64,000 nt of DNA, from assembly GCA_003344405.1 (NCBI GenBank), contig NOWV01000163.1, positions 62,001 to 126,000 on the forward strand. The letters are read 5' to 3'. The translations under genes were made by a program, and so were the position numbers. The notes under the pieces are model-generated. The model did not search any database. It saw only the letters and a program-made list of their open reading frames with translations, and had not been told where the DNA came from. The stretch is from Trichoplax sp. H2. Lineage: Eukaryota. Shown piece by piece: positions 8,168 through 56,780 of the stretch. Each line of letters starts with the position of its first letter. Within the stretch, counting starts at the first letter, position 1.

Positions 8168-8187
8168 NNNNNNNNNNNNNNNNNNNN
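8168..8187. other. Assembly gap (20 N)
   Basis: Run of N. Confidence 1.
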
Positions 8188-11316: not shown

Positions 11317-13735
11317 CTTAAAAATAAATTAATATTTCTTCTGATAATATAATAAAGCGTTTAAACAGCCTGCACTTACAATCCTTATAAAATTATGATA
11401 ATAGTAAGAATATGATCAAATAGAGCTTTGGGAGAACTTGTAGAACTTCGATTTCTACACAATATGATTATCGATGGAGGTGAAATTGTTAGGATATATT
11501 CTAATTACAGCGTAGAAAATGATAGTGAATGAAGAGACTTCGTAACAGTGATAATAACCATAAAGTGCTGTTTATAGCCACTCTTCAAGATTAGTTAAAG
11601 CTAGATTAGCATACCCTTAATTAGCATTTCAAGGGTAAATAATACCCTAGCTAGTATAAAAGAGATAATAGTTAATGATCAGAAATATGCTCTCTGTCAA
11701 TTGAATTCAAATTTTATTTGGAATGAAGCATTGATTCCTTTTTAATGTGTTATGCTTTATTATTTTAATAATACTTTATTGATGGCGTAGCATCATATAG
11801 GTATCCACTAGCTGAATTCATAAACATAGTAGAGGTCCGTAATAATCGATAAAAACTTTAATTATAAGCTACCCATTATCTATCATAATTTCGCCGGTGT
11901 TTTGATGACATCACATCAGTTAGATTGTTATGAATGAGGTCATTTGCTTTCAGCGTTTTTGAGATACTAGAGTACGAATATCAATACACCTAATTATTGT
12001 TCGACAATTCACTTCTGAGTATTACTGTGACAGCTCAAATAATGCAGCATTAGATCATGAATTAATTATCAGCACCATCTGATTATTCATTAACTATTAA
12101 TTTAAGCCGTAGTTAAGGAATTAATGTAGTTCAAACTAAAAATATATGTGAATGGTATTTGGTGTTATAAATTTTATCAGCTGTTATTACTAGATTAATA
12201 AAAGAGTGCAAAAATTTCGTGGAGAAAATAGAATATACTCAGCTGTACATTGCCAAATTGGTAAATTGATTTTGTACGTTTTCGGATCAAGTGATGACCA
12301 TCCAGTTAGCTAGTATATTAAGCCATCATGTTCTTTAGTTCGATAATTATAATAGCTCTGTAAGTGCAATACGAAATCTGAGTCTTCATAAGTCTCTTGA
12401 TTGAATTTTGATTCTTGGAAAGATTAATCAATAGTTCTTTGTTATCGCTTTTACTATATCTTTATTTAAAATCTGAAATTACGTGATCATAAGAAAAGTT
12501 CAGTTTATCGAGGATAGTACTCTAATCTTGAAGAAAATACAATCTTTTCGCTAGAGAAGCAGATGATAAAATCTTGGATTTACTAGTAAATGATTGCAAT
12601 GAATCTGGTTATAATTGTATATTTCTAGAATTTGACTGTTTGTCCACAATATATTGTTCGTACTTTAAGCCGGTGTTATAATATAAGCTAAAAATTGTTA
12701 CTAGAAGTACCGTTATTTCGCTTAATAATTTATAATTATACCCAAAGTAAAAGTAGGTTTGCCATTGGCTCTATGAACAGCATAGAAAATGATGGGAACG
12801 ATTACAAGGTAAATCTTCCAGCATCAAATTATAAAAGTTATAATGCATTAAAAATTAATATAACCGAACTTTCTTTAAAGTATATTTAAAAGGAATTAGT
12901 GAATACAAAAAAGTAAATCAACAATGAATCATTTTTAATTTACGTCTTCTTATATTGTAATTTTATTTGATTATTCAGTTAATTTTCTAGCGTAGATGCA
13001 CTTAGGGCATTCGATGAATAGGCGGTCTATATGATGTATCCTATTCCAGAAAATTGTGCAAAGTAATTGCAGTACGTCTAACTGTTATAAATTATTAGTA
13101 CAGACTATAGCTACGTTAGGCAGTTGTTTCCTGTAATCTATGACTGTATTTATTCATGCTATTTACATACATCCTTATTACACAGGATACGTACGAAAAT
13201 TAAATCATCGACAATTTAAGGTCAAAATGCTCTATTCTCTTTGAATTGAAGACAAGATTTTATTGTATTTAGTAAGTGAACTCTATTTGAGGGAATAATA
13301 TAGTGATGAAAACAAGTTGTCATATTAGTAGAAGATAGCTTTAAGGATAATTTCAATATTTCATTATATCTAAAATATTGTTGTATGCAAATAATTATTT
13401 ATAGAACATTAAATTGAAGGAAACAGACAGAAGTTTAACTTATGAATATTTCGATCCACAGTATCGTGCTCCAATTTTCATACAGAGCAATAGTTATAAA
13501 ATGTATGAAATTAACAAGGCAGCACTGGATTGAAGCACTATAATTTTTGCTTGCATATTGAAAGAGATTAACATATACATCAATCCAATCTATAATCATA
13601 ATAATATTGTGCGTTGTCGATCAGTTTATATCAGCATCTGCTATCGAGTGGAAGAGTTGAAAAGTTTGTCAATAAAAGGTCTGAATGTGTTGTTTACTGA
13701 TGAAGAATAGTAAGGCAACGGCCACAAATTGGTGT

Positions 13736-14776
13736 TTATTCGCTTGTATTAAAGACATATTGGCTAAAACTTTTTCTCACCTTCTTCGTAGCAGTAATAG
13801 GATTGACTGAGTGATGCCTCCATGCTGCTAGACAACGTGGCCAGTGATATTGTTGTTTAACAGCTCGACGTAAATATGGATTCATTGCGCCGTTGATAAT
13901 AGGATTGACGGCGCTGTTCATAAAATAGACGATAGTAGCGATGGTTTGAAAATCGTTGTATTTAGACAAATCTTCACTATTACTTGAATCGAAAGCATAG
14001 AGTGAACCAGCTACAAAATTGGGAGCAATGCATAATACATAAGCTAATAAAATTAGGCCAATCATGGATGTTACTCGGCGTTCAATTCGTTGTCGATTGG
14101 ATGTTGCTATACTTGAATTTTTAGCATTCTTCCATAGCGTAATGACTACTCTACCTGAGCAATATAAGATAGTAAAGGTTGGAAGAACAGTACAAAATAG
14201 AGTTACTACGGTCACATAGAGACTTGGATCACGCTGCTGCATATTACACATTAACTTGGAAAAGTAAAAGACATAACGATTCCATCCAAATAATGGTGGC
14301 GCAGCCCATATTGCTGAATACATCCAAACACCGACAGCCATGATTTTAGCTCTTTTGATAGACATCTTGGCAACAAAATTAGGATCCATGGCACAGACAA
14401 TGGCATAATAACGATTAATACTTAAAATTGCTAAGGAGCATAGGGCGTTATTGTAAAGTATCATGTCTAAAAATCCACCTATAATACAAAATGTACAACT
14501 AAATGGCCATACCAAAGTTAAAGAAATGGTGAAACATATTGGCATGACAATAATTGTAATAAAGAGATCATTTAAAGCAACATTGGCGATTAAAATATTA
14601 GTTGAGGTATGTAATTTTTTAATGGAAATTGTAAAAAAGATGATGGCTAAATTGCCAGTTAATGCTATAGTAAAAATGATGCCGATAGCAATGCTTGGCC
14701 ATATTCTATACGACGGAGATAGAGGGATTGTAAAATTGTTGAAGCAATGATTAGCATGGATAGCACCAGCGCTCAT
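13736..14776 (-). CDS. Rhodopsin-class GPCR, tandem paralog of the 10.3-11.3 kb receptor; 346 aa
   Basis: 7TM; KKLHTSTNILIAN, SINRYYAIV, KMSIKRAK, PPLFGWNRY, KLMCNM and ERRVT are shared with the neighbour. TM7 reads NPIING. Confidence 0.93.
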   Translation of the reverse strand: MSAGAIHANHCFNNFTIPLSPSYRIWPSIAIGIIFTIALTGNLAIIFFTISIKKLHTSTNILIANVALNDLFITIIVMPICFTISLTLVWPFSCTFCIIGGFLDMILYNNALCSLAILSINRYYAIVCAMDPNFVAKMSIKRAKIMAVGVWMYSAIWAAPPLFGWNRYVFYFSKLMCNMQQRDPSLYVTVVTLFCTVLPTFTILYCSGRVVITLWKNAKNSSIATSNRQRIERRVTSMIGLILLAYVLCIAPNFVAGSLYAFDSSNSEDLSKYNDFQTIATIVYFMNSAVNPIINGAMNPYLRRAVKQQYHWPRCLAAWRHHSVNPITATKKVRKSFSQYVFNTSE

Positions 14777-16204
14777 TGTTGCTCGTTCATTAATTATAAG
14801 CGATATCCTTTAATGGAAAAAAATTGAATTATCCAAATTCGATGATAATGTCTTCAGAAGCATCTCACGATTGTTTACCACTTTTTTTTTTATCGACGTC
14901 GTGAGTATTTCTGATGAAATTGCGTATTTGCCTTAGTCACGCTGATCATTAATCTAGGTATTCTTTTCAATTGTTAGTGCAGTTAATATCACGACAGTTG
15001 CATTGGGAAGCAATTTAGTCTACTCTTGTCTGTTGGTATTTATTTTATTGAAGCAGATGGTATTATTCACTCGTCTGTCTATTTCCTGCCTTGAATTGGA
15101 CATCCTTATTGACCTCTTAATTATGGCATAGCAAGACCATGTGACTCTCTTAACGTTCTGCGAGAGAGACTAGAACAGTGGTGCCAAGTGGTAGCCATTG
15201 CTGTTGACCTTTGCTTCAAACAAATGCAGTTCTTATTCAATAGGAAATGATACTACTTGAAGCATATGGCTCATTTGATTTGTAGACAACGTAAAAAGAG
15301 ACAGTGTATTTTTAATTTATTTGATATAGGACAGTAGATAAAGGTGATATAATTTGATTTTTATTAAAATTGAATGGAGGGAAGGGACAATCTATTGTAC
15401 ACTCAATGTACAGGTAGAAACAGCAGATCCTATTTACTTTGACATCCTGCTGATATTATACAATTGATTGAGCTCCATTACTGCGGTGCTTTTTATGAAG
15501 TATGGGTATAAATAATCCCGTGAAATGTTGCATTGGTCTCGAGTTACTTGGAAGTATTTGCATACTGTCGATTGTCTATCTCATGTAATAAGGGAATGTG
15601 GCCTTGTTGATCATTTTTAGCTTGAATGTATTTGCCTGCAACACACGCCATCTTGGCTAAAACTGATTGTCTATATTATCATGACACGATAAACTAATTC
15701 TGTATGGCAATAGATCCGCTGCTGAGCGATAACGGATGGACAAAAGTTGTCATTGGGTCAATCATGCCTCTCCTTTGTCGAAGCACTAGACTAAAAACAA
15801 GCTTGTATTGAAGATTGTCGTTGTTGTAATATGCGTGAAGGCGACATGGCCAACTACAACTACCTCATTGATTGGATGAATCAAGTCTTCCTTGAGAATT
15901 GATCAACCAAGAACTCTAAAAACTCCCTACGTATTGGGAATGAGGACTCATTTAGCGATAGCTATTTCAATTCATGGAATGACTTCATCCTTCAACTGGG
16001 TCTTCATGGACCATCCATTCCCATGGAGTATTGAAAGAGATCATTTGCCATTGAATGAATCCATGTTGAAGATCTGGCAGGTATTGATGGACGCATCGTC
16101 CATGATTGCGTGGAGATTGTCATACTGAATGCTTAGACAACAGTCGATTTCGACAGGCGTTCTTTCCACCGTTGCTGAGCGATGCTTCAAGTGGTGCAGT
16201 GACG

Positions 16205-16216
16205 TGCGCCTGCGCA
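16205..16216. promoter_or_regulatory. NRF1-like site (TGCGCAGGCGCA on minus) overlapping a TGACGT CRE-like half site
   Basis: Matches the NRF1 consensus YGCGCAnGCGCR; lies in a locally GC/CpG-richer patch at the left edge of the TACAG tract. Confidence 0.4.
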
Positions 16217-16237
16217 TGTTTCGATGCATACGAATGG

Positions 16238-17550
16238 ATACAGTACTGTACAGTGTACAGTGTACAATGTACAGTCAATGATACGGTGACAGTGAGCATA
16301 CTGTAGCGTACAGTACAGTACAGTACAGTACAGTACAGTACAGTACAGTACAGTACTGTAGACCACGAGCGATACAAATACCGTACTCTACTGTACTGTA
16401 CACTGTTGTACTGTACTGTACTGTACACTGTACCATTGTGAAATACTGTACACTGTACCCTTCTGAAATACAGTACTGTACAGTACAGTACAGTACTGTA
16501 CTGTAATGTGTACAGTGTACACTGTACAGTACTGTATGCAATGACAGTACAGTACTAGACAGTATGGAGTCATTGTAGTGTACAGTACTGTACAGTATGT
16601 CATGAAAAGAAAACCGGTTTTCTATGAGTGCTACAGTACAGTATACAGTACTGTACACATTGCACTGTAGCTGCAGCATCGACAGTTATACTGTACTGTA
16701 CTGTACAGTGTACAGTACTGTCTACTAGTGCTGCCTTAGTATACGAAAGTGTTTACAGTATAATACTGTATATGAGTGGCACTTTCATACCAAAACGACG
16801 TTTTTTTAATAGTAAACGAAAGTGTTGACAGTATATAGAGTGGCCCGTTCATACCAAAATGACGTTTTTGACTAGTAAACGAGCTGCTGTACAGTACACT
16901 GAAGTCGCCTTTTTATACGAAAGCGCTTTATACAGTATAACGTAAACGTAAGTATACAGTACAAAGGCAGCAGACGTGTACACTGCGCAGTGACAAGACA
17001 CGGTATAGCGTCCTAATGCAGGGAACAGTACAGTATTACAGTACTGTAACTGTATCAACTACAATGTACAGTACAGTACATTACAATACATAGTACAGTA
17101 CCGTAGTACAGTACTGTACTGTACTGTACACTGAGTGTACAGTATTAGTGTACAGTGTACAGTACTTCAGTGTACTGGACTACTGTAAACTGTACACTGT
17201 ACTGTACTGTACACGGCAGCCTGCAGTGCTCCAAACAATCATGTTGTGTACACAGTAGATTGCATTCAGCATGGGATCAGGGCCAAAGGCACGTGCCCCC
17301 AAAGGTGTAGTACATAGTTCATACTCCGTTGACCCATATGACCCATTGACCATACAGTGTCAGTGAATAGACAAGCGGTTTCGGAGCGTCAAACCAGTCC
17401 TGTACGATCCTAAGGCGTACTGCAATTTGATTGGTTGTGAGCCAACAACCGGTCCAACGCTGACAAACCTTCCGAGTCACCGTTGTCTCTTGGACTACAG
17501 TCGAGTGTATCGTCGTACTGTACTGTACAGTACGACACTGTACTGTACTG
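16238..17550. repeat. TACAG/CTGTA-rich simple-sequence tract (interrupted), including a pure (TACAG)9 array at 16309-16353
   Basis: Dense TACAG, CTGTA, TACAGTACTGTA and TGTACA units in both orientations; produces spurious CTVLY/YSTVQ ORFs. Confidence 0.9.
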
Positions 17551-22023: not shown

Positions 22024-25000
22024 ATGGAGAATAGTTTAATAGAAGATTGGAATATGAGAAGAGAGCTTCCAGATGCGGGATTCCAAATGGAAACCGACAA
22101 CTCTTATATGATTACTCCTGAACAGGATAAGGGTGTATTAGACGACATTGATGGTATGTTGGCATTCTTGATCGTATGATTTTTCTCCTATTTATCATTT
22201 TACGGAACCTTCCTAGCAAAGTAAAATGAAATGTTATTTCTCTTCATCTTTATGGATGAAATACTTTGGAGAAAAGATAGCTTAGTATTGCAAGTCTTTC
22301 GCCTTGATCAGTTTATGGACGCTTTGAATTATTCTAGAATAAAAACTGCATACTTTCCTTGTATTTCTTCAATCCACTCTTACTCACTGCATACTTTACT
22401 TGTACTTCTTCTATCTACTCTGACTTATTTTGGTAGTCTAAAAAAAGTTCTTCCCTACAGTGTACAGTACTGTACTGCCCGTTTGTCCTATTCATTCTAC
22501 TTACAGTACCATATTTTCTACTGAGAGCGTATCCATGTTTCAGTCAGTACACTAACTACAGTACAATATAGCGTAGGCTTGGACCTCTGCTCTGTACAGT
22601 GTACTGTACAGTGTACAGTATACTGTATGGTCCAGTCACAGACTACAGTATCAATTAAATGTCTTCAGCTGAACCTTCTCAGGCGTCCACTTTCAATACC
22701 GTAGATTGTTGTCAACTGGCGATTGTTGATGTGATTGTTTACTTCGTCAGTGATAACCGATGTTGCCGAAATTCAGCAGCTAAAACTTGGACCATGACTA
22801 ATCGCATCAGTTCATCAGTTCTTGCTGTTTTGGCTACACTCTGCAAAGTAAATGAGTAGGAGAGTTAGGTAGAGGATCGTTATTGAGTACAGTGTGTCAA
22901 TACTTGTGGATTACAACGATGCCGACAGTTGTAGTTAGTATAGCAAGCGATAGCGTAATAAGTATTTTGCGCCATTCTACCACTGTATAGAATAGATCAT
23001 GAGGAGTAATACTGTACAGTCTAGTCATTTCTTGATGGGTTATGTGTGCTAGCATACAACACATGGAGTAAAACTGTACAACTGTTCAGTATCATCGGCC
23101 ACCAGAACCAAGACTAGTTGCAGTAGTTAAGAGAAGATCAAAATTCACTACGGCTTTTCAGCAGTAAGTCTCTCGTTACAAGTAACAACCATGCATACAA
23201 TTCCAATGAGTTCAGATAGGATCGATGGAGCCAATGACGAATAGTAGATTGGGCCTCCTCTCGCTCTTACAACTTGACTTAAAATACCATGACAGAAGAA
23301 GGAGAAATTTTTCTGTGATGCAAATACATTCGATTAAATGATGCTGGATAGCAAGCAATATCTTGTCCATTGATACATACATATACGTGTGTATTTCCAG
23401 ATCTATTCAATATGGACTATTCAGGAGAAGTCGGAGAATTCGATATTTCAGACTACCTGCAATCGGATATGCCCGTCAGACAATTTGATGACACTTTAGC
23501 AAAACTTGAATGCGATCCGTATTCATCGTTGATTAGCAATAATTCTGCTAGCATGGATGAAATCAAGCCAGTCAACGATAATAAGAAAGCGGCTATCATA
23601 AGTCAGTTAAGAGAACAGGAACAATTGAAGCAGAAACAACTTGAACAGCAAAGGCAGCTAGACGAATTGAGGCAACAACAGAAATTATTACAAGATCAAC
23701 TTCAAAAAAGTCAAACAGGTGTTGGTACCCTGCCGAGTGTTGTAACACTAAGCATGCAAGCACCAATACTTCCTAATGCGACATCCGCTTATACACATAG
23801 TACGCCGATAGTGGGAACAACTCAACAACCACAGGTTAGAATTAAAAGTAATGGTTATACCTTGATTAATTTCGACCCTTGTTTTTATGTCGTAACTGAT
23901 TCTTAAATTAGATATCTACATCTTAATCTTCTTAGCTTGAGAATAAATTTGTTTTGGTTTGCAAAATAATCGTTATCGCTTACTGTTACAGTTCTATTCA
24001 TATTGTGCATTCGATATCTACGTGTATACTCAAGATAGAAATATTAGGAAGGACTACTATTTTAAATAACGTTACTCCATTCAGTTTTTCTACTGCACTA
24101 GTTGGAAGGCATTTATTTGCTTTCTGTACTCCAACTGAAATTATCAACTACTATTTTTCTAATATCGTGCGTGACACGTCAAAGGTTATACATACTTTTG
24201 ACTAAATATCATGGCCGTCTTCGGTGTAGGTTGTACTATACCACCATAACCAACAGTAGATGTATTTATGAATTTGCTTACCAAAACGTACTGCTTGATG
24301 GTGTATTGATTAAAATTATTATCGATTGATAGATTGTGTTGGCTCCGCAAGTCAAGGCTGAGGTAGCTCCTACCAAGCCTTCGGCTGTCAGCGTTGCATT
24401 CACCTCCGGTTCTGTAAGTTATACCAATCTTGTAAACACAAGTGGCGTACCGACAGTTATCGGAAGATCAAATGGAAATTTGGATAGTGAAAAAGTTCCC
24501 ATCAACAGGATTTTAAATAGCAGTTCTACACCAGTTCAGAACGTCAGCAAAAGTGAGCGAAGATCGGCTCACAACGCTATTGAACGACGCTACCGTACTA
24601 GTATCAATGATCGTATCATAGAACTGAAAGATTTGCTTGTTGGTCCAGACACTAAGGTTTGTTGCAAAGATCATCAGAAATTGGCAGTAATACTGATAGT
24701 AAAATCATGTATTTCTTCTATCTAATTATAGAATTTTTAATTTGTATTAATAAATGGCGTAATTGTCTTGTATGTTTTTACTTTTGAAACCGTTAATAGA
24801 TGAACAAGGCTGGTATTTTACGAAAAGCTATAGAATACATTCGATATATACAAGACGTTAACAAAAGACTTGAAAAAGAAAATATAGCACTTAAAGAAGG
24901 TATAGTCAGTCACACTAATGTATTTTTAGTAGGAGTTTTATAATGTCTCCTCTAGGCTGCTCATGAACGAATATCGGATTATCAATATTTTATGCTTACT

Positions 25001-33600: not shown

Positions 33601-34386
33601 CCTTTTTAATATTTATAATGATTAATCAAGTATTTATGCCTCTGTCATAAAACAGCTTTACAACAAGATAACGTAATATATGGTCAATAAGTCAATTCCT
33701 TGAACAACGTATCAAGGAACGATATCTGCACTATCACAAACACTTTTGCTCTACTAGCAGACTACACAAAGACTTAAACGCCTCGTATTTTACGTTAAGC
33801 ACTAAGTTGGAGAATCCGCTTTATTACACGATATACTGCATTTATATACTCTTCTTCAATAGTTCATGAGTCATAGTTAATACAATTAACATTGGAATCA
33901 TTTACTGAATTAGGTATTAATTTTAGCTACTGCTCCCTTAATGCAGACAACAGTATTTACGAACATAGACATGTAATGACTAATACAGAATAGTTAGATT
34001 ACGATATGTCCTATCACGGAGCATTTCCATGATAATTTACGATCTACCATAAGTAAATTGCAATCATAATGATTCGAACTGTAAGTAGATGATTTGGATT
34101 CCCTATTATATCTATTAATTTCAGTATGTGTATATGTGTCACTGTCATAAGAAGTCAGTGCTATATTAAAACACAGCATATCCAAATTAGAAGTTAACTA
34201 AATAAGGATAGGCTAACAATATTATCCTAACATAGATATTTCTACTGTAATACAGTACATAACACTGTCACAGCCTCAAATGTCCATTCTAAGGCTAATT
34301 AAAGAAGCTCTGTTGACATTTAGAGAAAGGCATATTAGTTATTAGACATAACAATTGTTTCAATACGAAATATTCACGAGAACAAG

Positions 34387-34938
34387 TGTAATGTAACTAG
34401 TATTGTGACTGTAGACTATTAGCCATGTTTAGTATAATGTACGGTAGATATTTATCTTAAGAGATATTTGGTAGCTATAACTATAGACTGTAGTGGTATA
34501 GACTCTACGATAGAGTACAGATGACTATATACAGTAAGGTGTTGAGCTACTAATAAGGCTATAGGTAAAAAATAGAACTGTAAATTATACATTAGGATAT
34601 GGTTAATTCATTGTACTTTGGCTGGTGCGAATAATGTCTACGTAAGTACTGTAGTCGTATCCATATCAGATTAATGATGGTCCGCTGTAAAATAGTGTTA
34701 CTAAGAATAATTTAACTATTTGTAAAATAAGGTAAAAGATTGTCATGCGGATTGTAGCTGGGAATGCTACGATAAATATAAAAGCATGCAACTCTAGATT
34801 ATTCCGTTAGTTCGTTGTAGAAGTCTTTAGTAGTAGTATTTGGCTAGAGTAGAGCTGTGTGTAGTTAATCTTAGTATAAGATTCAATAAAGCTCTTATTT
34901 TTCTAAAATTTGGAATTTCGTGATTGGTATATATCACA
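34387..34938 (+). mobile_element. Solo LTR of an LTR retrotransposon (552 bp) with 5-bp TSD ACAAG
   Basis: Begins TGTAAT and ends ATCACA (TG...CA, imperfect terminal inverted repeat). Flanked by ACAAG at 34382-34386 and 34939-34943. TATAAAA near 34777 and AATAAA at 34885-34890. Near-identical to 41454-42449. Confidence 0.88.
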
Positions 34939-35821
34939 ACAAGTTATCATATATAGGTGTCCCAGGGGTGGCGATGATTGAGCTATGTTCTCTTTTCCAT
35001 CTATGCTTATATAGTAATATAGATATCGGGTTATCTTATTTGAATGATCAACTGTAAAATAATCCAATAGAAGTTAAAGTTGGTTCACCGATAACCTTAG
35101 TTTATTATCTTTTTTGGAATGATAGATTGCAGTAATATACATACAAACATTTTAAGGAGGAAGCTAGTTAAGAATGATCGGTAAATTTATTATTGAATGA
35201 CGTCAATCCGGGACAAAATTAAATGCGACTTTAATTAAAATTTTATTCGTGGTATTTTTCAAGGACTTTACATAATCGTGCATGATAGTCTTGTTTAATT
35301 TACTTTGTTATTGATATAAAATTGCCGAGAATTTATACATCAAGTTATAATTACTACTGTTCCTTTTGAATCGATAATAATTATTCTTAATTTTTAAATA
35401 ATTTACCTTAAAAATTTATAGATTTAAACCATTGAAATCGTTTGCTATTTAGATTATCAATCAATGATGTCTAGTTTATTTTTTTTATTTCACAAATGCA
35501 TGAGCATTGAAGGTATTGTCAGATGCGAAAATTTTTTCGGCTGACATCATCCTTAAGGATTTAAATACTGCATTATTGAGAAACATTTGTATACTAATTG
35601 TACTTATTTCGGTACTTACTCGTATTCTAATTTAATTTATCATCGCTTTAACTTACAATGAAAATTTATTGTAATGTAATTCATTGCGGCTGTAAGAAAT
35701 CGTTTCTGCGAAAAATTTGTTAAATTTGAATATTGGATGATATTATAATTGTATTAGAATAAGTAGATAATCAGCAACTATTATTATGATCGTGTCAATC
35801 ACAAATTTAGGCCTGACTCTA

Positions 35822-36960
35822 TTATCGATTAGATAATTCTTCTTCACTATCAGATAGTGGATATTGATCAGGAGATCCTTTACTTTCGTTTTCATCATGA
35901 TCTTGTCCATCTAACTTATTGTCCTTTTTCCACTTTACGCGACGATTCTGGAACCATATTTTAACTTGCTTCTCCGATAAATTTAACATATTAGCAATCT
36001 CAATCCTCCTCAGTCGCGATAGATATCGGCTACTGTTGAACTCCTTTTCTAATTCTAATAACTGCATACTGGTATAAGCTGTTCGTATACGCTTAGTTCT
36101 GGAAGAATGACTGGTCGATTTCATGCTAGTTTTATCTATGGAAAAGGTTAAATTATCAAGCTTAATATTAGGTTCAAATCAATTCAGAATGATCAAGTTG
36201 ACAATTTTAATTCTACTTTAAATGAACGCGAAGAAAAGGCTTTCAATACCTTGCAAGAATTTACTTACTTTACAATATGTTAAATGGTCTAACAACAGTA
36301 TGGCGAAAGATAGTTACAATTATCGAAAGACTCTAATTTGAGGAAGTATCATATACACACTTCTAATTAAATTAATCTATAGAATAAAATATCAACTGAT
36401 TGGTTTATTAGCATCTAAGTGAAAATAGTCATGATTTTGAATATCGATTGATAACTGAAAATAGAATAAAAACAATTTTTATCTAGTCCTAACTTCGAAC
36501 CACTCTGTGACTTTTCGATATTACAGTAGTGTTTATACTATTAATTTAGTAAATTTCTATTGCATTACGAGATGCATATAGAGGTTATTCTCCTATATTT
36601 TTCTGTTCGCTTATAAAATCTTTTACCTGATGCTAAATCTGGATGTTGTTGAGTGTCGGTATTTTGGATTCCTTGGAAGGCTGGTAATGATTGGTGATGA
36701 TGGTTGTCCAATCGATATTGTTGCTGATGGTATATGGCAGGATCGACTATAGGCGATGGCTTTACTAGAACTGGCCAAGTGACAGTTGATTTGGGTATAC
36801 AGACTTGACATGATGAATAATTGGGGTTGCTATCATGAGGCCAAGAGTGATAATTCGACGGCAGATAAAATGGTGCCATCATGGAAGAACCGTTAATGAT
36901 GGCATTGGTTGGATTACCTGGACCGATTAAACTTTCAATTTTAAAAGATGTATTGGCCAT
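35822..36960 (-). CDS. Trox-2: Gsx-type ParaHox homeobox protein (placozoan Trox-2); 2 exons, 215 aa
   Basis: Exon 1 36960-36627 (donor G|GTAAAA), exon 2 36135-35822 (acceptor TTTCCATAG|), phase 1. N-terminal SFKIESLI (Gsx/eh1-like). Homeodomain [58 protein letters not shown] is typical of Gsx/Cnox-2. Confidence 0.95.
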
Positions 36961-37182
36961 GTTTCACCTGTTAAATATTGTTATAAAATTCTAGCATAAA
37001 CTAATTTATCAATTAATCAATTGTGGCAATAATTGAAAATGATGATTAGTGTTTAAACAGATATGGATAGTAGTTAAAACTTTAAAGTCTAAATTGATGT
37101 TAGCAGTAATTAAGTTTAACTATCAATGTTGTTAACTCAGGCGATGAATGATGGAATGTGATAATTTTTTACTAGCTCAGGG

Positions 37183-37192
37183 CTTTTATATA
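37183..37192 (-). promoter_or_regulatory. Candidate TATA box of Trox-2
   Basis: TATATAAAAG on minus about 225 bp upstream of the ATG, with Inr-like TCACATTC about 30 bp downstream. Confidence 0.4.
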
Positions 37193-40100
37193 CTAGCATG
37201 ATGTTATAGATATATATAATACATTTAATTGATATGGGAAAAAGAGGAGTGGAAAATAACAATTTGCTTCTCTGTATTTATAAATACTTTTTATTTTCGT
37301 CGCTAATTCTAACAATTAATGAATATTTTAATAATTTAATACCAATTGTCACCCAGGCACGTTGTCAATAGTAAATAGACATTTGTTAGTTAAAATTTTT
37401 GCAATTATACGTGTATATCTACTTGATTTACATATATTCAATAGACGATAGAACACGCTTTAATGCCATAGTATTTACTTAATTCTCTTTTCCAATATTT
37501 ATCTATATCAAGACTGTCTATTCCTAAAATAGTGAGAACATGATTTAGACTTGTTTCTGTCGTGCAAAGTCATTTTTATCATCATCATTAACTTAATTGG
37601 CAATGAATGAATCTTTCTAACATTATACGCGTTATTATTCCACCAATTATTAAATAAAAATAATTTTTATAAAAATTAAAAATTGACATGCTGTTGTGAC
37701 AGGCTAAAAAAATCCAGTGATATCATCAATACTATTGGAAACTAGTCATCACGACTAATGAATGTATAAATAGGGTGGAGAATAAGAGTATATAGCAACA
37801 ATTAAGAGGGCATGCAATTCAAGGAAATCCCAAATGGACGGAATATCGATCAAAAAATAGATTGCTATGATAATAATAATAACGATAATACAATAAAATG
37901 ATGGAAGATAATAGTCAATAAGATAAGAATCTACTTTTAAGTTTAATTTCTGATAATAGTTTAAATTCTTTTCATGAGAATACGTTTATAATAGGTATCA
38001 CCTGTGCTTTTTATTAACATAAATCAATAGTTGATTCCTTTGCCAACAGTTCTATTATCATTTTTATTTAATTCATCGATTTATTTATGTATAACGGCAG
38101 GTTAATGATAACAAAGCTAGCGGGTCAGTATCAACAAAAATACTGTTCTATTTGACGATTAATTATCAATACAAATTCATGAAGGTAAAATAGAGTAAGG
38201 ATTGAAGAAAGGCTGTAGGTGTTCAATTTTATATTATATACGATGTTCAACGTAACAATCATCGATTCAAACTAATTAAATTAACAATTGATCTATTTAA
38301 ATCTAGTAGTATGGTTGTTAGCAGTTGTTACAATTTTAAAGATAAATTATAATTATTTTTATCAATAATAACCACTGGCCATTTCGCAGCATTATGGATT
38401 GTAATGTGAGCATGAAATAGCCAAGTAATGATTCGCTGTACAATAGATAGTAGTATATTAAGGTTTAACTTATAGAGCTACTATCTGATTCGAAATGGAC
38501 TAGTTACGTAGACAGAAACTCTATAGACCTAATTCATTGAGAGATAGTTAAATCGAATTTTATAAGGAGCTTTACCTTAGTAGTTAATTAATCTTTTAAC
38601 TTTGATAGTAATAGTGACTGAGACGAAGTAGCTCATTGAGAAAATTACTCATTATCTGAAAATATCGCTGTTACTAATTATGAAATGATAGCTGTGCATA
38701 AACGTGACATTTTTGTATTCTCTAGGCCAAAGATATTCGACGATATTTAATATTATCAACGGGTGGTGTTTCTCACCATCATGATAAAATTAATCGATAT
38801 TTGTATATATCCTTTCTTTAGTGACAGTAACTCAACTTAGTTTAAAAAGGTATAATTAAAGTTTGATGTAAGGTAATGATCGCGCATATTAACTATATAG
38901 CTGTTTTAGCATAATAAAAATTGAACTATTATGGATCGTCAATACTGAAAGACATCGAATTACTTATAACATAAAGCTTACTACATTAACAACATGTAGG
39001 ATTAATATTTTCGCTGTCTTATGAAAGTCAGACAGGCCGTAACACTTTGCATTACTTATAAAGCAAGGGTTAATTGAGCAAATAAAGAAGAATATATGGA
39101 TAACTTAAGGGTAAATATAGCACAGTTATAATAGCAAATGATGCAGGCGTTCAATTGTCTTTATAGAAAATGAATCACTTTACATATTTAAATGTCACAG
39201 TATGGTTGTGTTTCAAAATTATTAAATTCCACTTTAGTAGTAACATTGTAACCCATCATCACTAGATTAGTTGGAGCTGGAAGGAACATTTGTTGGCTTT
39301 TAATAATGGAATAAAAAATGAATATAGTTAATTTTTGTGGATTTAATATTTGATTTGTTGAGCTTAGAAATTAGAACATTCGTCGAGTAGCATATAGATA
39401 ACTGATCATTTGATTAGTATTATTTCTATGTATTCTATTTCCGAAGCATATTAACAATCTTATTTAACTGTACGGATAGGATTCAAAGTTGCCTATTTAC
39501 TATAGTGAAATATCATCAAATTGTAAGAATATTTAGTAACATTTAAAAAAGAGCTATGGTAATTTGTAACTGGATACTGTTGGCAGTTTTGATTGTCTAA
39601 GATGATGTGGATTAAAGTTCTATAATTAGATCTACTTAAAAAATAATACGTTGGTAAAATAATAAGTGTTGCGTGAAGTGGAAGTGGTGCTAAGTTATCG
39701 TTGAGCAGTTTATCACCTACTGAGATGGATTTAAAAATGGTGATTACTAATTCCTGATAAATGCTACAAATAAATAGCTGTATTAAATTAATTGTTCTTT
39801 ATTCCAACTAGGAGAGCGTTTAGCATCATTTTCGTAAAATATATCTTATGCTACCAGACCCAAGTTAAGAGAAAGCAAGACTCTTGAATTGTTCAGGCTA
39901 AGTCCGATTTAGGCAATACGAGTAGGATCTGTTGCTCGTTTACATTTTCGTCTAGCCACTAAAATAAATATTATGATGATCAATTGATTAGACTTTGTTG
40001 CGTTGGTAATAAAGGCAAAAATCAGTACTGTAAATTTAATAAACTGTACTATCAATCAGCATTTTAAATTGAGATTGATTTCATTAATTTGATGGAGTGA

Positions 40101-41453
40101 TGATTTCAGGGTGAAATTGATCTACACACGAACATTCTACGTCGTGCAAGAAGAACTTGATAGAATTCAAGCTAATAGATAAAGGATAGATTGTATTGAA
40201 AAGGAATGACAGCTTGCTAATGCACGCTATAATTACAATATAATATTATCTATAGCTCTAATTGCCTCCATAATCAAGATAAGATTGATAGTAGTTGAGA
40301 TAAGACGTTACGCTTTCTATTGTAATTATCTTTGTCCTAGATAATAAATAACTTTTATAACCAGAAAATAACCTCAATAGCTGATGTTGGCATAGAATGA
40401 GACTTATTTATCAACAATTTAATTGTTATGTTAATATCATTGAGTTCGATATTAAACAATCGGCGCTTTTTTAGAATGATCGCATTCGGTTACTCCGTTG
40501 TTTCGTTATTTTAAGTTTATTTTATTGTTCTCAATTTTGTCTTTCTTATAGGTTTGTTGTATTACATAAGCGAGAAGAAACTTTACGTGCCAACATGATC
40601 CATTTTTCTCTCATGACTTTAATCTGTACTAAATTCTCGCATTGTATTTAAGTGTAGCTGAATGCAAACAAGTTTGCATAAGAAATTCCAATCATACTTT
40701 AAGTAAATCGATTAAATTTAGTCACATTAGACAGAAGTCAGCTTGAATAGTCTAATTTGTTCTTTTCCAATCTTCAAAGGATTTTATAAAATTGGTTGTG
40801 TTACACTAATAAGATGAGTATTGATTACTGTAAGGAGTAAAAGTACATCTATTAATAATCCATAAACAGTCACTATTATTTTTATCTATCAAATGGACAT
40901 ACGTAGAATGAAAGGAATGAGATCATATTGTTCACAAGCATCGGATGATTGCTGGATTTGCTTTATTATGACAGGCCTAGAATAAATTTGACGAACTAAT
41001 TGGACATTGTTTTACATGCTGACGACAATTCTCAATGTATGAACAGAATAACGATAATGCAAGACAGAGGTTTGATTACGGATCTTATCTGTCATTAATA
41101 GACTGTGTAACTGTTATATATATCCTGCGGCAATCATTAAAAACATAATCCGGTGCTTTTATAATATCAAGATAATAGTGCCTAGAGTACTAATGTAAAA
41201 CCAACATAGATCTGACTTTATCTTCAAATAGCTTTAATAAAATAACCTTAATACTTTTAACCGTAAAAACTTTCTCTGATTCATACTTAATGCAATATAA
41301 TGTAGTAGATATGATATACTTTTAAGGGCGGAATTTCTTTATCTATAGGCTGATCATTTACGAGACCTCTGCTTTTATATTTAATACTCTTGTAATTCAC
41401 TTTTGTTCTTTCGTAGTCTGAAGTGTAAATTTAGTTTTAAGAAAGTAGCACTC

Positions 41454-42449
41454 TGTAATGTAACTTAGTATTGTGATTGTAGACTATTAGCCATGTTTAG
41501 TATAATGTACGGTAGATACTTATCTTAAGAGATATTTGGTAGCTATAACTATAGACTGTAGTGGTATAGACTCTACGATAGAGTACAGATGACTATATAC
41601 AGTAAGGTGTAGAGCTACTAATAAGGTTATAGGTAAAAAATAGAACTGTAAATTATATATTAGGATATGGTTAATTCATTGTACTTTGGCTGGTGCGAAT
41701 AATGTCTACGTAAGTACTGTAGTCGTATCCGCGAATAATTGTAGCTGGGAATGCTACGAAAAGTATAAAAGCATGCAACTCTAGATTATTCCGTTAGTTC
41801 GCTGTAGAAGTCCTTAGTAGTAGTATTTGGCTAGAGTAGAGCTGTGTGTAGTTAATCTTAGTATAAGATTCAATAAAGCTCTTATTTTTCTAAANNNNNN
41901 NNNNNNNNNNNNNNTTGTAGACTATTAGCCATGTTTAGTATAATGTACTGTAAATACTTATCCTAAGAGATATTTGGTAGCTATAACTATAGACTGTAGT
42001 GGTATAGACTCTATGCTAGAGTACAGATGACTATATACAGTAAGGTGTTGAGCTACTAATAAGGCTATAGGTAAAAAATAGAACTGTAAATTATATATTA
42101 GGATATGGTTAATTCATTGTACTTTGGCTGGTGCGAATAATGTCTACGTAAGTACTGTAGTCGTATCCATATCAGATTAATGATGGTCCGCTGTAAAATA
42201 GTGTTACTAAGAATAATTTAACTATTTGTAAAATAAGGTAAAAGATTGTCATGCGGATTGTAGCTGCGAATGCTACGAAAAATATAAAAGCATGCAACTC
42301 TAGATTATTCCGTTAGTTCGCTGTAAAAGTCTTTAGTAGTAGTATTCGGCTAGAGTAGAGCTGTATGTAGTTAATCTTAGTATAAGATTCAATAAAGCTC
42401 TTATTTTTCTAAAATTTGGAATTTCGTTATCTGTATACAGTATATCACA
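41454..42449 (+). mobile_element. LTR retrotransposon insertion with 5-bp TSD CACTC: two LTR copies separated by an assembly gap (collapsed full-length element, or two alleles of a solo LTR)
   Basis: CACTC (41449-41453), then TGTAAT...41894, 20 N, 41915...TATATCACA, then CACTC (42450-42454). Both halves match 34387-34938; the left copy lacks ~81 bp. Confidence 0.85.
41895..41914. other. Assembly gap (20 N)
   Basis: Run of N. Confidence 1.
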
Positions 42450-45400
42450 CACTCCAATGACAGCCATCTTTTGCTAATTATTTATCGAAGCTTACAGTAG
42501 GATTGAGATTCTGTATTATTGATGTTTACACTTATCTTTTACAAGTAGTTCAAGGCTTTATTAATAGCTTGGACAATCATTTCACGATTAATATTTAAAT
42601 GATGCAGATAGCTTTCTGTTCTGGTAAATGGTACATAATAGACCACGGTTGTAGACTCAAACATAAAATGTCTACATTTTATGTGTCCCACAGCTTAAAA
42701 ATTAATCAGTACCATTTTATACAACTTTTGTTATCTTTCGATATTATTTCTTGTTTTACAGTTAGATCCTATTATTTCATATTAGTTAAATTTGTATATG
42801 GCTACTAGTTATAATCATTTTTAAATATAACAAAAAATTCAGTCATTAAAGGCTATAAGTAGCATTAATATTTAACTCAATTAAATTATAATGGTTGTTT
42901 ATTCATCTTTTAAGGTGAATTTTTCCCATTGTTGTTAATGTTTCTAATATTAGTAATGTCATAGCTCAATTTTAAATGTTTACTATTAGCTCTCTGACTT
43001 TTCTTTCTGTCAAGTTTTAGATAGAGCATATCAAGTTCTATCATTTAGCTTGCTATCCACTGTACTTCTGTTAAAAATTAAGGATGAGAAATTGATACAG
43101 AGTATGAGGTATCGATAACCAAAATTTGTATGAAACTTACCATGATAGTATAAAGCACAATTTTTTTATGAATATGAATGTTAAGCGGGTAATTCTACTC
43201 GATATTCCTTTACAACTACATTAGCTGGTCGGGCTTTATTATAATAAGTGATAGTGAGAATATAAGACTCTTATCTTGGTCGAAGTAAAAATAAAAGCAC
43301 AGATATGAAGTTTATATCAATATTTATTGATCATTTTATTATTATGAATTAGCGTGCTGATCCAGCAAATTTATTTTAGCTTCCAGGCTGTTTGTAAATT
43401 AGCTTTAACGATATATAACATGCTAATGCGCAAGATAGTAGGCCATAATAGCTTAGGTGAAATATATGCCAAAGTCTTGTTTTCTGTTTAATTAATGTTG
43501 CCAAAATATGTAATATTAACTAAAGCATCTAATGATGACCAGTAGCTGACCATTGCATATACGATTTAGGAATGGCTTAAGAATTAACTGTGAATTACCG
43601 ATTACAAAATTAATTTGTATTGTATAAGATTGTAAAAATTATATAAAGTGAATTTTAAATTTGTTATTGCCGTACTAATATCAGTAAATTGCCTACGTTG
43701 TTCTCTTTAAACATTAGTCATTTTATTCAAGCGTTAAAAACTATATTTTTGGTACAATTCAAAGTAAATGTCATGGCTTAATAAATATTTAAAAATCTAG
43801 AAAATTTATACTAGAATTTAAATGAAGTTGTGATGGAATTTGAACCACTATTATTCTAAAATAGCTTAAATGTTAATTTTAAAAATAAATACCACAAAAT
43901 GATTATATGATTTGACAAAATTTTAATTATCATATTGCCAATTAATTTTTAACTTAAGGTCTTCGCAATAATTGTGGATTGAAAATCTGTTCAAGAGGGC
44001 GCTGTGTCTACATGTTAGGGAAATCTTGCCTTCCATAGATCAAAGGGCTTTTCTATATGAATAGATGTTTAGATGTGAACGTATTTGTAAAGCTTTCAAT
44101 TATTGGCATAAACAAGCATGTATATTATACAACTATTAATTGTTAAGGTGTATTAAATTTATAATTATCCAGTAATAAGAATAGTTTGGAAGTAATTTTA
44201 TATAGGTAAATAACTCAATTTATTTTTATTTTATGAAATAATAATTATCATTCCAGGAAATGTTATCTTTTACTTCAGGAAAATCATACTTTCACTATGG
44301 TTTCTAATTCAATTCATTCCCTTGTATTTTATTTTCACATAGTATTAATATAAATTTACAACAAAATATTTTATGTGCTTAATAAAGTTATTTGGTAGTT
44401 TATTCTTCCTGGTAAATGTAATTACTACGATAGCTGAATTGAAAGTGCTTATTGAATTTGAAAGATTGCATAACGCTGTTTTAAATGTCTTCCTAGAATG
44501 AAAAAAATATTGTCTAATCATAAGGCAATTAATATTTAAAGATACTGCAGGATTATAATCATCATGATGTTCCATACGTTGCAGTTTCTTTTTGTCTATA
44601 AATTGCTTCAATATTAGAAAACAGGTTTATTTATTACTTGCCTTATTTGGTAGTGTTATCTTCTCCACTGCTAGATGGAATTTTAATTATTGATGGCTAT
44701 TTGCGAATATGTTAATGAATAATAGATCAACTGGCGTCTGCAGTGAAAGCCAGGGTGAAATTTATTTCCGTCCAGCTTCATAACAGTTTGATATAAATGT
44801 AGTTTCTAATTTTTGTTCCAATGACCGCATGAGTCACTTTTATATACTAATCTAAGCTATGTAAGGTAATGCAGTAAGAGAGATAATTGAATAGCTACAG
44901 ATTAACTTGATATTATGAGTTCTAGTTGGAAATCAGTCGCAATCGCTTCAGAGGAATAAGACGGTTTTAACTTTTAGACTGGTTGGTAATAACTTTTGAA
45001 TGCATCTACCACGTATTTAAAATCTCATTGGTAAAGATCTGATAGTCATGAAAAGAAAATAAGTTATCTTCATCATCAAATAATTATAATTATTGATGAC
45101 AGTAACTTGAAATATTCTAATGATAATCGGGGCGATTCCAGCAATTTGTAGAAAAACTTAAACATTAGAAAAATACAAGTCAATCGTACTCGATAGATCC
45201 TTCTTGATATAGTAGTACGGTACCAATAAATTACTCTAATGAATTTGTTTGAGTAATTGAATTAGGTAAAACGTTCATAAATGCCTAAAGGTTATCTTAA
45301 CTATATATAATTGTCTTACTTAAGTGATTGACATTCTATTGATACCTTTAGGATAATGGTATTTTAAATTCCAACATAAACGGTTAAAAGACATTTCACT

Positions 45401-55640: not shown

Positions 55641-55787
55641 GAGAAAAATGCAATTTCTTTAATAATACTAATCAAAACTATTGACTTGGATTTACGTTAT
55701 AATCGTGAACTTGCATGACTATTAAATGTGTTTTTTTCCTTTTCGTCTCGGTAGTTTCGAGTTTGAAACTTCAGCTCCGACGCAGCC

Positions 55788-56780
55788 ATGGATAATCTCA
55801 GTAATTTTAGCCAAGCGCTGTATATTGAAGATTTCTATTTTGTGGTAATTTGGGATTTAAGCGTTGGCTACTTAGGGTTCTGCCTAAATTTAATCCTAAT
55901 ATTTCTAATATTTAAAAGTAGATCATTTAATAAAGCTTATGACATTCTCTTAGCGAATCAGGGATTATCCGATTTAGCATGCTCGGCTGTAATTTTTACT
56001 TCATCTGTTTATTCTCTAATTCTGCATTCATCATCAATGACTGAAATGCATAAACAACCCGTTTGTACAATTGCTTATTTTATTATGGTTACTACATTTG
56101 CAGCTTCGGTTATCATATTTACAGCAATTGCTGTTGATCGCTATCTCAGTCATATTCGAAATCGTCATCGTGATCGGCCTGTCCGTTCTTCAAAGGTTGC
56201 TATAGGCATTACCGCTATGTGGATCACTTCTGCTTGTGTAGCTTATCCAGTAATTTATTTTATTGAAGTTCATGGCCCATCTATATACAGCTGCACCGTA
56301 ACTCAGGATATCATGATGGCACATTTTAACAGAATCTTCTTTACAGTCTTATTTTGTATCTTCTATCTCCTTCCATCCGTTATTATTGTTGGATGCTATT
56401 TACTGATATGTATATCCATGTACAATCAATTGCGAAAGTGGCAAGAAACCAATATGAAGAGAAATTGGCGCAATTATGAGAGGGGAAAATCTGTTATCTG
56501 GTTTTCTCTCATGATAACTGCAGCATTCTTGTTACTAAGTACGCCGTTTGTTGCCATTTTAATGAATTCAGCTTATAGTAGTCATTATCTACTAGATCCT
56601 TTACCTAAAATTAGCCTAAGTCGGCGATTTATCGTTGAAATATGCATAATTATTTACAAGAGTCGATGTGTGGTTATATCGTTATTACACCTTAGATTTC
56701 GCAAAAGTTTACGACGCGAAACAGCCGAGCAATGTATGTGCCTTTATAAGGTGCACAGAAATGAAGCTGATGTAAATTGA
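55788..56780 (+). CDS. Divergent rhodopsin-class GPCR; 330 aa, single coding exon
   Basis: 7TM; N-terminal NLS/NFS glycosylation sites, TM2 LANQGLSDL, TM3 Cys and AIAVDRY, TM4 W...P, ECL2 Cys, TM5 YLLP...Y, TM6 P. NPxxY is replaced by ISLLH. Good Kozak context (GCAGCCATGG). Confidence 0.9.
   Translation: MDNLSNFSQALYIEDFYFVVIWDLSVGYLGFCLNLILIFLIFKSRSFNKAYDILLANQGLSDLACSAVIFTSSVYSLILHSSSMTEMHKQPVCTIAYFIMVTTFAASVIIFTAIAVDRYLSHIRNRHRDRPVRSSKVAIGITAMWITSACVAYPVIYFIEVHGPSIYSCTVTQDIMMAHFNRIFFTVLFCIFYLLPSVIIVGCYLLICISMYNQLRKWQETNMKRNWRNYERGKSVIWFSLMITAAFLLLSTPFVAILMNSAYSSHYLLDPLPKISLSRRFIVEICIIIYKSRCVVISLLHLRFRKSLRRETAEQCMCLYKVHRNEADVN

Follow-up and report, generated by a model that had tools for sequence, protein, structure and literature searches.

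The window, the stretch of 64,000 nucleotides of Trichoplax sp. H2 that we analysed, holds between two repeat sites a two-exon gene on the minus strand. Its predicted translation confirms the gene as the homeobox gene Trox-2, with identities of 111/111 and 102/103 residues to the 215-aa 'trox-2 homeobox transcription factor [Trichoplax adhaerens]'. The left repeat, element L, is found on the 3' side of Trox-2, 884 bp from the stop codon, and the right block begins 4,494 bp 5' of the ATG, in agreement with the spacing of ~0.9 kb and ~4.5 kb given in an earlier note on this DNA. Both insertions read on the plus strand, antisense to Trox-2 and hence in direct orientation to each other, and they lie ~6.5 kb apart. 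A second very abundant repeat occupies ~34140-34272 on the 3' side of the gene. Among the papers listed by our literature searches, none describes LTRs at the Trox-2 locus, which is not proof of absence. Coordinates of all features are collected in the table.

Features of the Trox-2 locus and its flanking repeats (positions within the window)
Feature	Position	Strand	Remarks
Target-site duplication ACAAG, 5' copy	34382-34386		
Solo LTR-like element L	34387-34938	+	552 bp; TGTAA...TCACA termini
TATAAA in L	34777-34782	+ only	single; element position 391
AATAAA in L	34885-34890	+ only	single; element position 499
Target-site duplication ACAAG, 3' copy	34939-34943		
Trox-2 exon 2, homeodomain	36135-35822	-	stop codon 35822-35824; Pfam Homeodomain E 2.2e-23
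Trox-2 intron	36626-36136	-	phase-1, GT...AG
Trox-2 exon 1, from ATG	36960-36627	-	translation match to known protein
Target-site duplication CACTC, 5' copy	41449-41453		
R_a, partial LTR copy	41454-41894	+	441 bp; ends at gap
Assembly gap	41895-41914		20 N
R_b, partial LTR copy	41915-42449	+	535 bp; starts at gap
Target-site duplication CACTC, 3' copy	42450-42454		

At the left site, the ~550-bp TG...CA element flanked by ACAAG that the earlier note had reported is present as such and measures 552 bp, with the sequence ends TGTAATG...ATATCACA. Its TATAAA and AATAAA are 108 nt apart; neither hexamer occurs on the minus strand of the element, and both are common in DNA of ~70% A+T. The right site is less simple. 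The CACTC flanks described there are indeed found, but the single ~550-bp unit that was thought to lie between them is not: the block of 996 bp consists of R_a, 20 N and R_b, two partial copies around an assembly gap. R_a covers positions 1-276 and 365-521 of the reference, with 7 bp in place of the 88 bp between them, and R_b extends from reference position ~24 to the end of the element. When merged, R_a and R_b make up exactly one element between both copies of CACTC.

Could the two sites be the ends of one element? The target-site duplications differ, ACAAG on the left and CACTC on the right, each matched on both sides over 5 bp, and a chance 5-mer match has a probability of ~0.0019 per site at the base composition of the window. 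Homology between the sites opens exactly at TG and closes exactly at CA, and the sequences beyond it show no relation to each other. Since the duplication matches within each site but not between them, and the surroundings differ, the sites are not two ends of one element; the proposal that members of one family inserted here separately, in direct orientation, is borne out. The same features rule out one giant element carrying Trox-2; a segmental duplication is ruled out by the exact stop of similarity at TG and CA. Within the repeat, L shares 96.9% identity with R_b over 522 bp; against R_a it reaches 97.8% across a segment of 277 bp and 97.5% across one of 157 bp. R_a and R_b differ from one another by 3.2%, in addition to the 88-bp deletion, and are as far apart as they are from L.

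The locus is present in all four public sequencing runs considered. A junction counts as bridged when 31 letters support it. This applies to the 3' junction of R_b, which is crossed with 0 differences by X1 record 8 (from 42349), X2 record 24 (from 42380) and X4 record 32 (from 42400). At the other three junctions, contigs extend 26-30 letters past the repeat edge and so reach the junction without bridging it; for L this occurs at single-copy depth at both the 5' junction (X2 record 18, X4 record 27) and the 3' junction (X1 record 3, X2 record 20). Run X13 is 2-6x deep and fragmentary, and one of its contigs, starting at 42448 beside the right junction, is compatible with an empty or a filled site. 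No empty-site joint occurs among the 15 joints listed of a total of 31. The Trox-2 interval itself forms one contig at the depth of its flanks (60.2 versus 61.8, and 29.7 versus 29.8), and the window differs from the run contigs at 24 positions in 6,564 bp of unique interval (~0.4%). The runs give no sign of a deletion or duplication of this interval. Ectopic recombination between the two copies is possible in principle, as between any direct repeats; since the interval is contiguous at flank depth, nothing shows that it has occurred, with the proviso that contigs shorter than the repeat do not reveal in-register recombinants. Among the joints listed, those that connect the two copies (such as 34476 to 42077) are out of register, as deletion variants of other family members would be.

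How common is the family? We estimated its abundance from the public k=31 contig sets of runs X1, X2 and X4, which come from three studies. Summed family depth is 300-700x the single-copy depth per bin in all three: LTR bins reach 16.5k-42k versus 60-65 in unique bins in X1, 8.4k-19.9k versus ~30 in X2, and 4.8k-17.4k versus ~24.5 in X4. In each run, dozens of contigs share the repeat up to exactly 34387, 34938/9 or 41453/4 and continue from there in unlike flanks. Unlike sequence directly precedes the first base of the element in 74 contigs of X1 (14 + 20 + 40), and unlike flanks follow its last base in 30 contigs of X1, 28 + 15 of X2 and 24 + 15 of X4. A 26-base stretch of the element had 0 matches in the metagenome scan. 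As summed contig depth is not copy number, the size of the family can be given to an order of magnitude, ~10^3 copies in a genome of ~100 Mb, so that about one copy is expected per 64-kb window. Two nearby copies therefore need no preference for the locus, unless the minor subfamily that L, R_a and R_b share turns out to be very small; the insertion preference put forward earlier finds no support in a family of this depth, with 74 contigs of unlike 5' flanks in X1. Nor does anything point to the recent activity that had been suggested: the copies have diverged by 2-3%, one bears the 88-bp deletion, most family contigs are only 90-99% alike, and the junctions of both insertions recur under two organism codes and in three studies.

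What kind of element is this? The termini fit TGTNR at both sites (TGTAA at the start, TGTGA as the reverse complement of the end), a pattern that PMC2836005 ascribes to gypsy LTRs and Ginger elements alike. As in LTR retrotransposons, the target duplication falls within 4-6 bp and differs per insertion (5 bp; ACAAG, CACTC), and dispersed copies share identical boundaries. Solo LTRs of Ty3/gypsy elements have the same TGTNR TG...CA ends, site-specific 5-bp duplications and length of ~0.5 kb, and likewise occur as numerous dispersed copies that share their boundaries; the single TATAAA and AATAAA on one strand may correspond to their TATA box and poly(A) signal. A difference is that no paired copy with a gag-pol interior, primer-binding site or polypurine tract is seen here. 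No reverse transcriptase, integrase or gag was detected in the 11 ORFs scanned of the 13 in the window of at least 110 aa. LTR identity is read from the ends, the target duplications and the candidate signals, and the family most likely derives from a Ty3/gypsy-like retrotransposon, its superfamily being a guess from gypsy fragments, which PMC2871265 gives as the main class of LTRs in Trichoplax.

We consider it very improbable that a Ginger-type integrase-like transposase mobilised the element, which would then be a short non-autonomous DNA transposon instead of an LTR. Ginger elements account for 936 entries and 270 kb in T. adhaerens (PMC6057997 supplementary file 3), their TGTNR termini and short target duplications resemble those seen here, TDD-4 and TDD-5 produce duplications of 5 bp (PMC2836005), and the internal region of a retrotransposon is unseen in the window. 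However, PMC2836005 describes inverted repeats 40-270 bp long at the termini of Ginger elements and assigns 4-bp duplications to the metazoan members, with 5 bp only in TDD-4/TDD-5 of Dictyostelium, whereas the duplications here are of 5 bp and the termini are not inverted beyond TGT/ACA. Alignment of the element's ends scores 12-14 versus a shuffled mean of 15.0 (SD 2.5), and a search for inverted pairs of at least 40 bp (seed 12) found none. The TATAAA and AATAAA, each present once and on one strand only, may also argue against a DNA transposon.

Does the right block contain one LTR or two? Across the gap, 41915-42168 matches 41477-41730 and 41738-41894 matches 42257-42413, in alignments that reach the contig ends. 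The only other gap in the window is also of 20 N and has the same geometry, 6982-7186 matching 8188-8393 at 97.6% and 7299-8167 matching 8392-9260 at 98.6%, with a 112-bp indel, so that both gaps are flanked by a duplicate aligning exactly to the contig ends. With two gaps out of two alike, the 20 N may mark a minimal or negative gap, and the right block is most likely one solo LTR represented by two unmerged alleles. Such 'duplicated overlapping contigs' are a known class of haplotype mis-assembly (Kelley and Salzberg 2010, PMC2864568). Both gaps share with this class that contigs adjacent in one scaffold align with each other right to their ends, apart from an indel and differences of a few per cent; the class is defined by compressed mate-pair distances, whereas here the assignment is a probable one from contig alignments. 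Unlike in plain duplicated overlapping contigs, the duplicate at the right site is itself a high-copy repeat, which admits other causes. The earlier note had held that an abundant family or a mis-assembly at either site would tell against its interpretation, and a highly abundant family together with a possible mis-assembly at one site is largely what we find.

Alternatively, R_a and R_b might be the two LTRs of a single integration, either a full-length LTR retrotransposon with an interior of several kb in the gap, or a miniature element with a short internal segment between its LTRs, or a tandem LTR-LTR pair, in which tens to hundreds of bases would be missing. We regard this as possible but clearly the less probable reading. 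A single CACTC duplication encloses the 5' part, the gap and the 3' part in order, assemblers typically end contigs within high-copy repeats, and a small real gap would suit the minimal 20 N. A contig at single-copy depth (62.2 in X1, 33.1 in X2) runs from an LTR end (34938) directly into an LTR start (41454), with a side of 28 letters, and more joints lead from another CACA-ended repeat into the LTR start. The end-to-start joint is nevertheless absent from X4, its sides are shorter than 31 letters, and it may sit anywhere in the genome. LTRs are identical at insertion, yet R_a and R_b differ as much from one another as from L; the other gap shows the same duplicate geometry without LTR features; and long repeats as well as reverse transcriptase/integrase ORFs are very few in the literature (PMC6057997). 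Terminal-repeat retrotransposons in miniature (TRIM) would account for a single target duplication around two LTR pieces as well as for a high copy number without coding capacity, and their internal segment, if any, would fall in the right gap. They are known mainly from plants and their LTRs are usually shorter. The gap interior is covered by no contig, since the k=31 contigs break 26-30 letters past the repeat edges. Two observations speak against the allelic reading: R_a and R_b are 3.2% apart versus ~0.4% between window and runs in the unique interval, and a full-length element or tandem pair with an unassembled middle gives equal gap geometry.

It appears unlikely that the pairing around Trox-2 arose by a local process, be it gene conversion between the direct copies, targeted integration into the chromatin of this locus, or selection of the copies as regulatory or boundary elements. 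All three copies have an A at 34873 and a T at 34893, and L and R_b also share a T at 34720 and an A at 34739/42245, letters that are almost absent from the family depth; at 34893 in X1, 96,110.5/96,256.9 of this depth carries another letter. These shared rare letters place L, R_a and R_b in one minor subfamily, and their proximity could then be less coincidental than the total copy number suggests. A transposon-derived motif does mark placozoan loop anchors, but according to PMC12221973 it is a Mutator terminal repeat and not an LTR. The subfamily may be large, since rare variants are lost from contigs; the copies are nonetheless 2-3% apart; the TATA-to-poly(A) direction is antisense to Trox-2; and the abundant repeat next to L suggests that this is simply repeat-accepting intergenic DNA.

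We consider it probable that two old, independent insertions of a high-copy LTR family, the right one present as unmerged solo-LTR alleles, flank Trox-2 by coincidence. Both would have integrated into AT-rich intergenic DNA on either side of the gene, the left one now being a solo LTR and the right one likewise a single solo LTR, whose alleles differ by ~3% and the 88-bp deletion. Because of this difference, the overlapping contig ends would not have been merged, and the assembler may have set the allele ends side by side around a minimal gap of 20 N. In a genome of ~100 Mb with ~10^3 copies, a pair of insertions at a distance of 6.5 kb would be an expected coincidence. The repeats that flank Trox-2 look like ordinary insertions of a common family; they carry no demonstrated Trox-2 function and are presumably neutral, and nothing observed supports the boundary or enhancer role suggested in the earlier note.

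For the biology of Trox-2 the consequences are small, as no regulatory or structural effect is shown. The reference sequence 4.5 kb upstream of the gene, however, probably contains a false duplication at the gap, which matters for promoter constructs and for the reading of chromatin data. All LTR retrotransposons together are reported as 0.04-0.16% of the Trichoplax genome, and T. adhaerens as having fewer than 200 repeat entries of at least 1 kb and 12 reverse transcriptase/integrase/transposase ORFs (PMC2871265 and PMC6057997 for the former, PMC6057997 for the latter). The 'transposon-poor' framing adopted in the earlier note rests on protein-homology counts, and a later survey lists 11,770 'Unknown' interspersed repeat entries in T. 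adhaerens, amounting to 3.55 Mb or 3.78% (PMC6057997 supplementary file 3). Taken together, these counts allow for few full-length elements and for many short unclassified repeats. About 10^3 copies of ~0.5 kb would equal 0.5-1% of the genome, several times the share reported for LTRs. If that holds, solo LTRs probably make up some of the 'Unknown' repeats, and the 'transposon-poor' label would reflect the loss of coding elements more than a lack of past activity. There is a slim chance that the copies flanking Trox-2 are mutual nearest relatives within the family, through local gene conversion or repeated targeting, and that the right block is at the same time a real LTR-LTR or miniature unit; in that case, a non-autonomous LTR element would have grown to ~1% of a genome in which reverse transcriptase genes are nearly absent.

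Do the two elements around Trox-2 represent the ends of one transposon? They begin and end alike, their similarity in the sequence alignment starts and stops exactly at these termini, and their flanks are unrelated. The earlier note's view of two separate integrations is therefore upheld. Chance identity of the 5-mers forming each target-site duplication has p ~0.0019 per site at the window's base composition. Both elements lie on the plus strand, antisense to Trox-2. The left one ends 884 bp past the stop codon, with the right block beginning 4,494 bp upstream of the ATG, in agreement with the spacing first noted.

Features flanking and encoding Trox-2, and receptor genes of the window (reference positions are numbered along the 552-bp left copy)
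Feature	Position	Strand	Description
Left element	34387-34938	+	552 bp; starts TGTAATG, terminates ATATCACA
ACAAG target-site duplication	34382-34386 and 34939-34943		directly abuts left element on both sides
Right feature	41454-42449	+	996 bp; starts TGTAATG as left, terminates ATATCACA
CACTC target-site duplication	41449-41453 and 42450-42454		both edges of right feature
R_a	41454-41894	+	441 bp before gap; reference positions 1-276 and 365-521
Assembly gap	41895-41914		20 N
R_b	41915-42449	+	535 bp after gap; reference position ~24 to end
Trox-2 exon 1	36960-36627	-	111/111 residues identical to database protein
Trox-2 exon 2	36135-35825	-	102/103 residues identical to database protein
Trox-2 stop codon	35822-35824	-
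Rhodopsin-family receptor ORFs (four, intronless)	4300-5730, 10294-11328, 13736-14809, 55767-56780	+, -, -, +	Pfam 7tm_1, E 1e-23 to 6e-43

The gene itself consists of a homeodomain-encoding ORF on the minus strand (Pfam E 2.2e-23), linked via a phase-1 GT...AG intron to an upstream ORF starting MANTSF, and matches the 215-aa 'trox-2 homeobox transcription factor [Trichoplax adhaerens]'. Residue 201 (35825-36133, minus strand) is D in the window and G in the database protein, a change that is either allelic or between strains. About 10 kb past the 3' end of Trox-2, where surrounding G+C is higher (0.36-0.38), an ORF at 24333-24725 (+) carries a helix-loop-helix DNA-binding domain (E 1.1e-08). 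Two of the receptors, those at 10.3-11.3 and 13.7-14.8 kb, are paralogous to each other (68% DNA identity over 456 bp). At 16235-17213, where the G+C of the window peaks (0.43), the sequence matches itself at many overlapping places, in direct and inverted orientation, with 67-79% identity, which hints at a degenerate repeat built of short units; the ORF at 16123-16554 has no Pfam match.

The right feature had been described as a ~550-bp unit; it is 996 bp long and contains a 20-N assembly gap. In R_a, the part before the gap, 88 bp are replaced by 7 bp. R_a and R_b, the part behind it, diverge by ~3.2% (identity 97.2% over 254 bp and 96.2% over 157 bp), as much as the left copy diverges from either (96.9-97.8% identity). 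The other of the window's two gaps, at 8168-8187, is likewise exactly 20 N and flanked by duplicates whose alignments extend exactly to the gap-touching bases. There, 6982-7186 matches 8188-8393 at 97.6% and 7299-8167 matches 8392-9260 at 98.6%, with a 112-bp indel and a repeated stretch of 1.1-1.2 kb. This intergenic region (6982-9260), between two receptor genes, probably represents two unmerged alleles, that is, a false tandem duplication. Duplicated overlapping contigs, set side by side where divergent haplotypes were left unmerged, are described in the available part of PMC2864568, and the same pattern is seen at both gaps of the window.

Because both gaps show this pattern, and because R_a and R_b merge into exactly one element between the CACTC pair, we lean modestly towards one solo LTR in two alleles at the right site. 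Alternatively, the gap could conceal the interior of a full-length element, a small stretch between two LTRs, or the point where two tandem copies meet; even taken together these are less likely. Each would give the same gap geometry. In favour of these alternatives, two of the public sequencing runs, X1 and X2, contain a contig of single-copy depth that passes straight from an LTR end into an LTR start; it was not found in a third, X4. The sides of this joint are only 28 letters long, and it may lie anywhere in the genome. A false duplication in the copy upstream of Trox-2 is probable.

What kind of element is this? Its termini fit the TGTNR pattern, common to gypsy LTRs and Ginger transposons according to the available part of PMC2836005. 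The same text gives Ginger-type elements a required inverted repeat of 40-270 bp and 4-bp duplications in animals, whereas the element here has 5-bp duplications and no terminal inverted repeats were found (end against reverse-complemented end scored 12-14; shuffles 15.0 ± 2.5). The plus strand of the element holds a single TATAAA and, 108 nt away, a single AATAAA, and the minus strand has neither; the arrangement suits a U3-R-U5 layout, weak evidence in DNA of ~70% A+T. From the termini, the lack of inverted repeats and these one-strand motifs we infer an LTR origin, the best-supported reading of an element whose interior is not seen. For gypsy in particular, published work on Trichoplax (PMC2871265) supplies no more than a prior. 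Reverse transcriptase, integrase and gag were absent from the 11 scanned of the window's 13 ORFs of >=110 aa, which included four rhodopsin-type receptors, one HLH and one homeodomain protein; a metagenome scan gave no matches.

Logan contigs (k=31) from four public runs, covering three studies and two coded organism labels, were aligned to 34000-43000. Depth was 60-65 in unique intervals and 16.5k-42k in element-holding bins for X1, ~30 and 8.4k-19.9k for X2, and ~24.5 and 4.8k-17.4k for X4. Element bins thus reach 300-700x unique depth per bin, a summed contig depth that is not a copy number and serves for order of magnitude only; as contigs seem to have been distributed over the three copies, the family total is higher. 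Loose contig ends give independent support: unlike sequence directly precedes the first base of the element in at least 14 + 20 + 40 contigs of X1, and directly follows its last base in at least 30 (X1), 28 + 15 (X2) and 24 + 15 (X4). The family occupies at least many dozens of insertion sites, probably about 10^3. At 1,000 copies per 100 Mb, 0.64 are expected per 64-kb window, two or more occur with a probability of 0.135, and ~130 copies should have a neighbour within 7 kb. The earlier note had proposed a preference for this locus, unless the family were so abundant that chance explains the pairing; with ~10^3 copies, this is essentially the case.

The shared letters of the copies count against coincidence. 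The left copy, R_a and R_b all carry A at 34873 and T at 34893; the left copy and R_b also share T at 34720 and A at 34739/42245. At shared sites nearly all family depth has the other letter (e.g. 96,110.5 of 96,256.9 at 34893 in X1), and because the shared letters are so rare, the copies either belong to one minor subfamily or have exchanged sequence. Contigs drop rare variants, so subfamily size is not readable from their depth. Were it tiny, the proximity of the copies would need a local explanation, which we consider improbable.

A second repeat (~34140-34272), 114 bp upstream of the left LTR, is more abundant still than the LTR family (bin 34000-34300, depth 108,625 vs 60 in X1). It ends in CACA, 37 X1 contigs diverge after 34272, and its minus-strand start weakly resembles the LTR 5' end (score 27). 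At other places in the genome, several contigs of single-copy depth run straight from its end into an LTR start. At 34056-34215, a single-copy-depth contig in X1, X2 and X4 skips 158 bases and carries GTTATA instead, which reflects either an allelic indel or divergence from the reference.

Insertion junctions were found in X1, X2 and X4, and one contig spans 34913-41479 in X1, as in X2. Contigs of 178 bp over 34239-34416 reach full single-copy depth (29.5 vs 29.7 in X2; 23.9 vs 24.5 in X4), which speaks for the left insertion being present on both haplotypes. The right 3' junction is bridged, with 50-101 letters within R_b and no differences in X1 and X2 (two in X4). At the other three, contigs extend 26-30 letters into the repeat, below the 31-letter rule for bridging and the maximum attainable by k=31 contigs at a multi-copy repeat edge. 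Nothing points to a recent burst, and the recent activity first suggested finds no support: copies differ by 2-3%, one has the 88-bp deletion, and most contigs are <99% alike (among 1,925 aligned in X1, 343 at >=99%, 716 at 95-99% and 866 at 90-95%). Depth between the copies equals that of the flank past the right copy (X1, 60.2/61.8; X2, 29.7/29.8; X4, 24.5/24.4); no deletion or duplication of the Trox-2 interval is visible by contig depth in these runs, in which in-register recombinants are undetectable.

How does such a family fit published surveys? In their available text, Wang et al. 2010 (PMC2871265), using protein homology and LTR_FINDER, report that transposable elements make up 0.13% and LTR retrotransposons 0.04%, and that no element is active. 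The part available of Kamm et al. 2018 (PMC6057997) gives 6.7% repeats for T. adhaerens, 0.11-0.16% for all LTR retrotransposons across two Trichoplax genomes, 0.06% for T. adhaerens Gypsy and 0.29% for Ginger. Placozoan loop anchors are tied to Mutator terminal repeats, not LTRs, in the available portion of Kim et al. 2025 (PMC12221973). The observation stands but is unremarkable: the intergenic DNA around Trox-2 holds two fixed insertions of a common LTR-like family. As far as the available part of PMC6057997 goes, the family would fall among its 'Unknown' T. adhaerens repeats (11,770 entries, 3.55 Mb).
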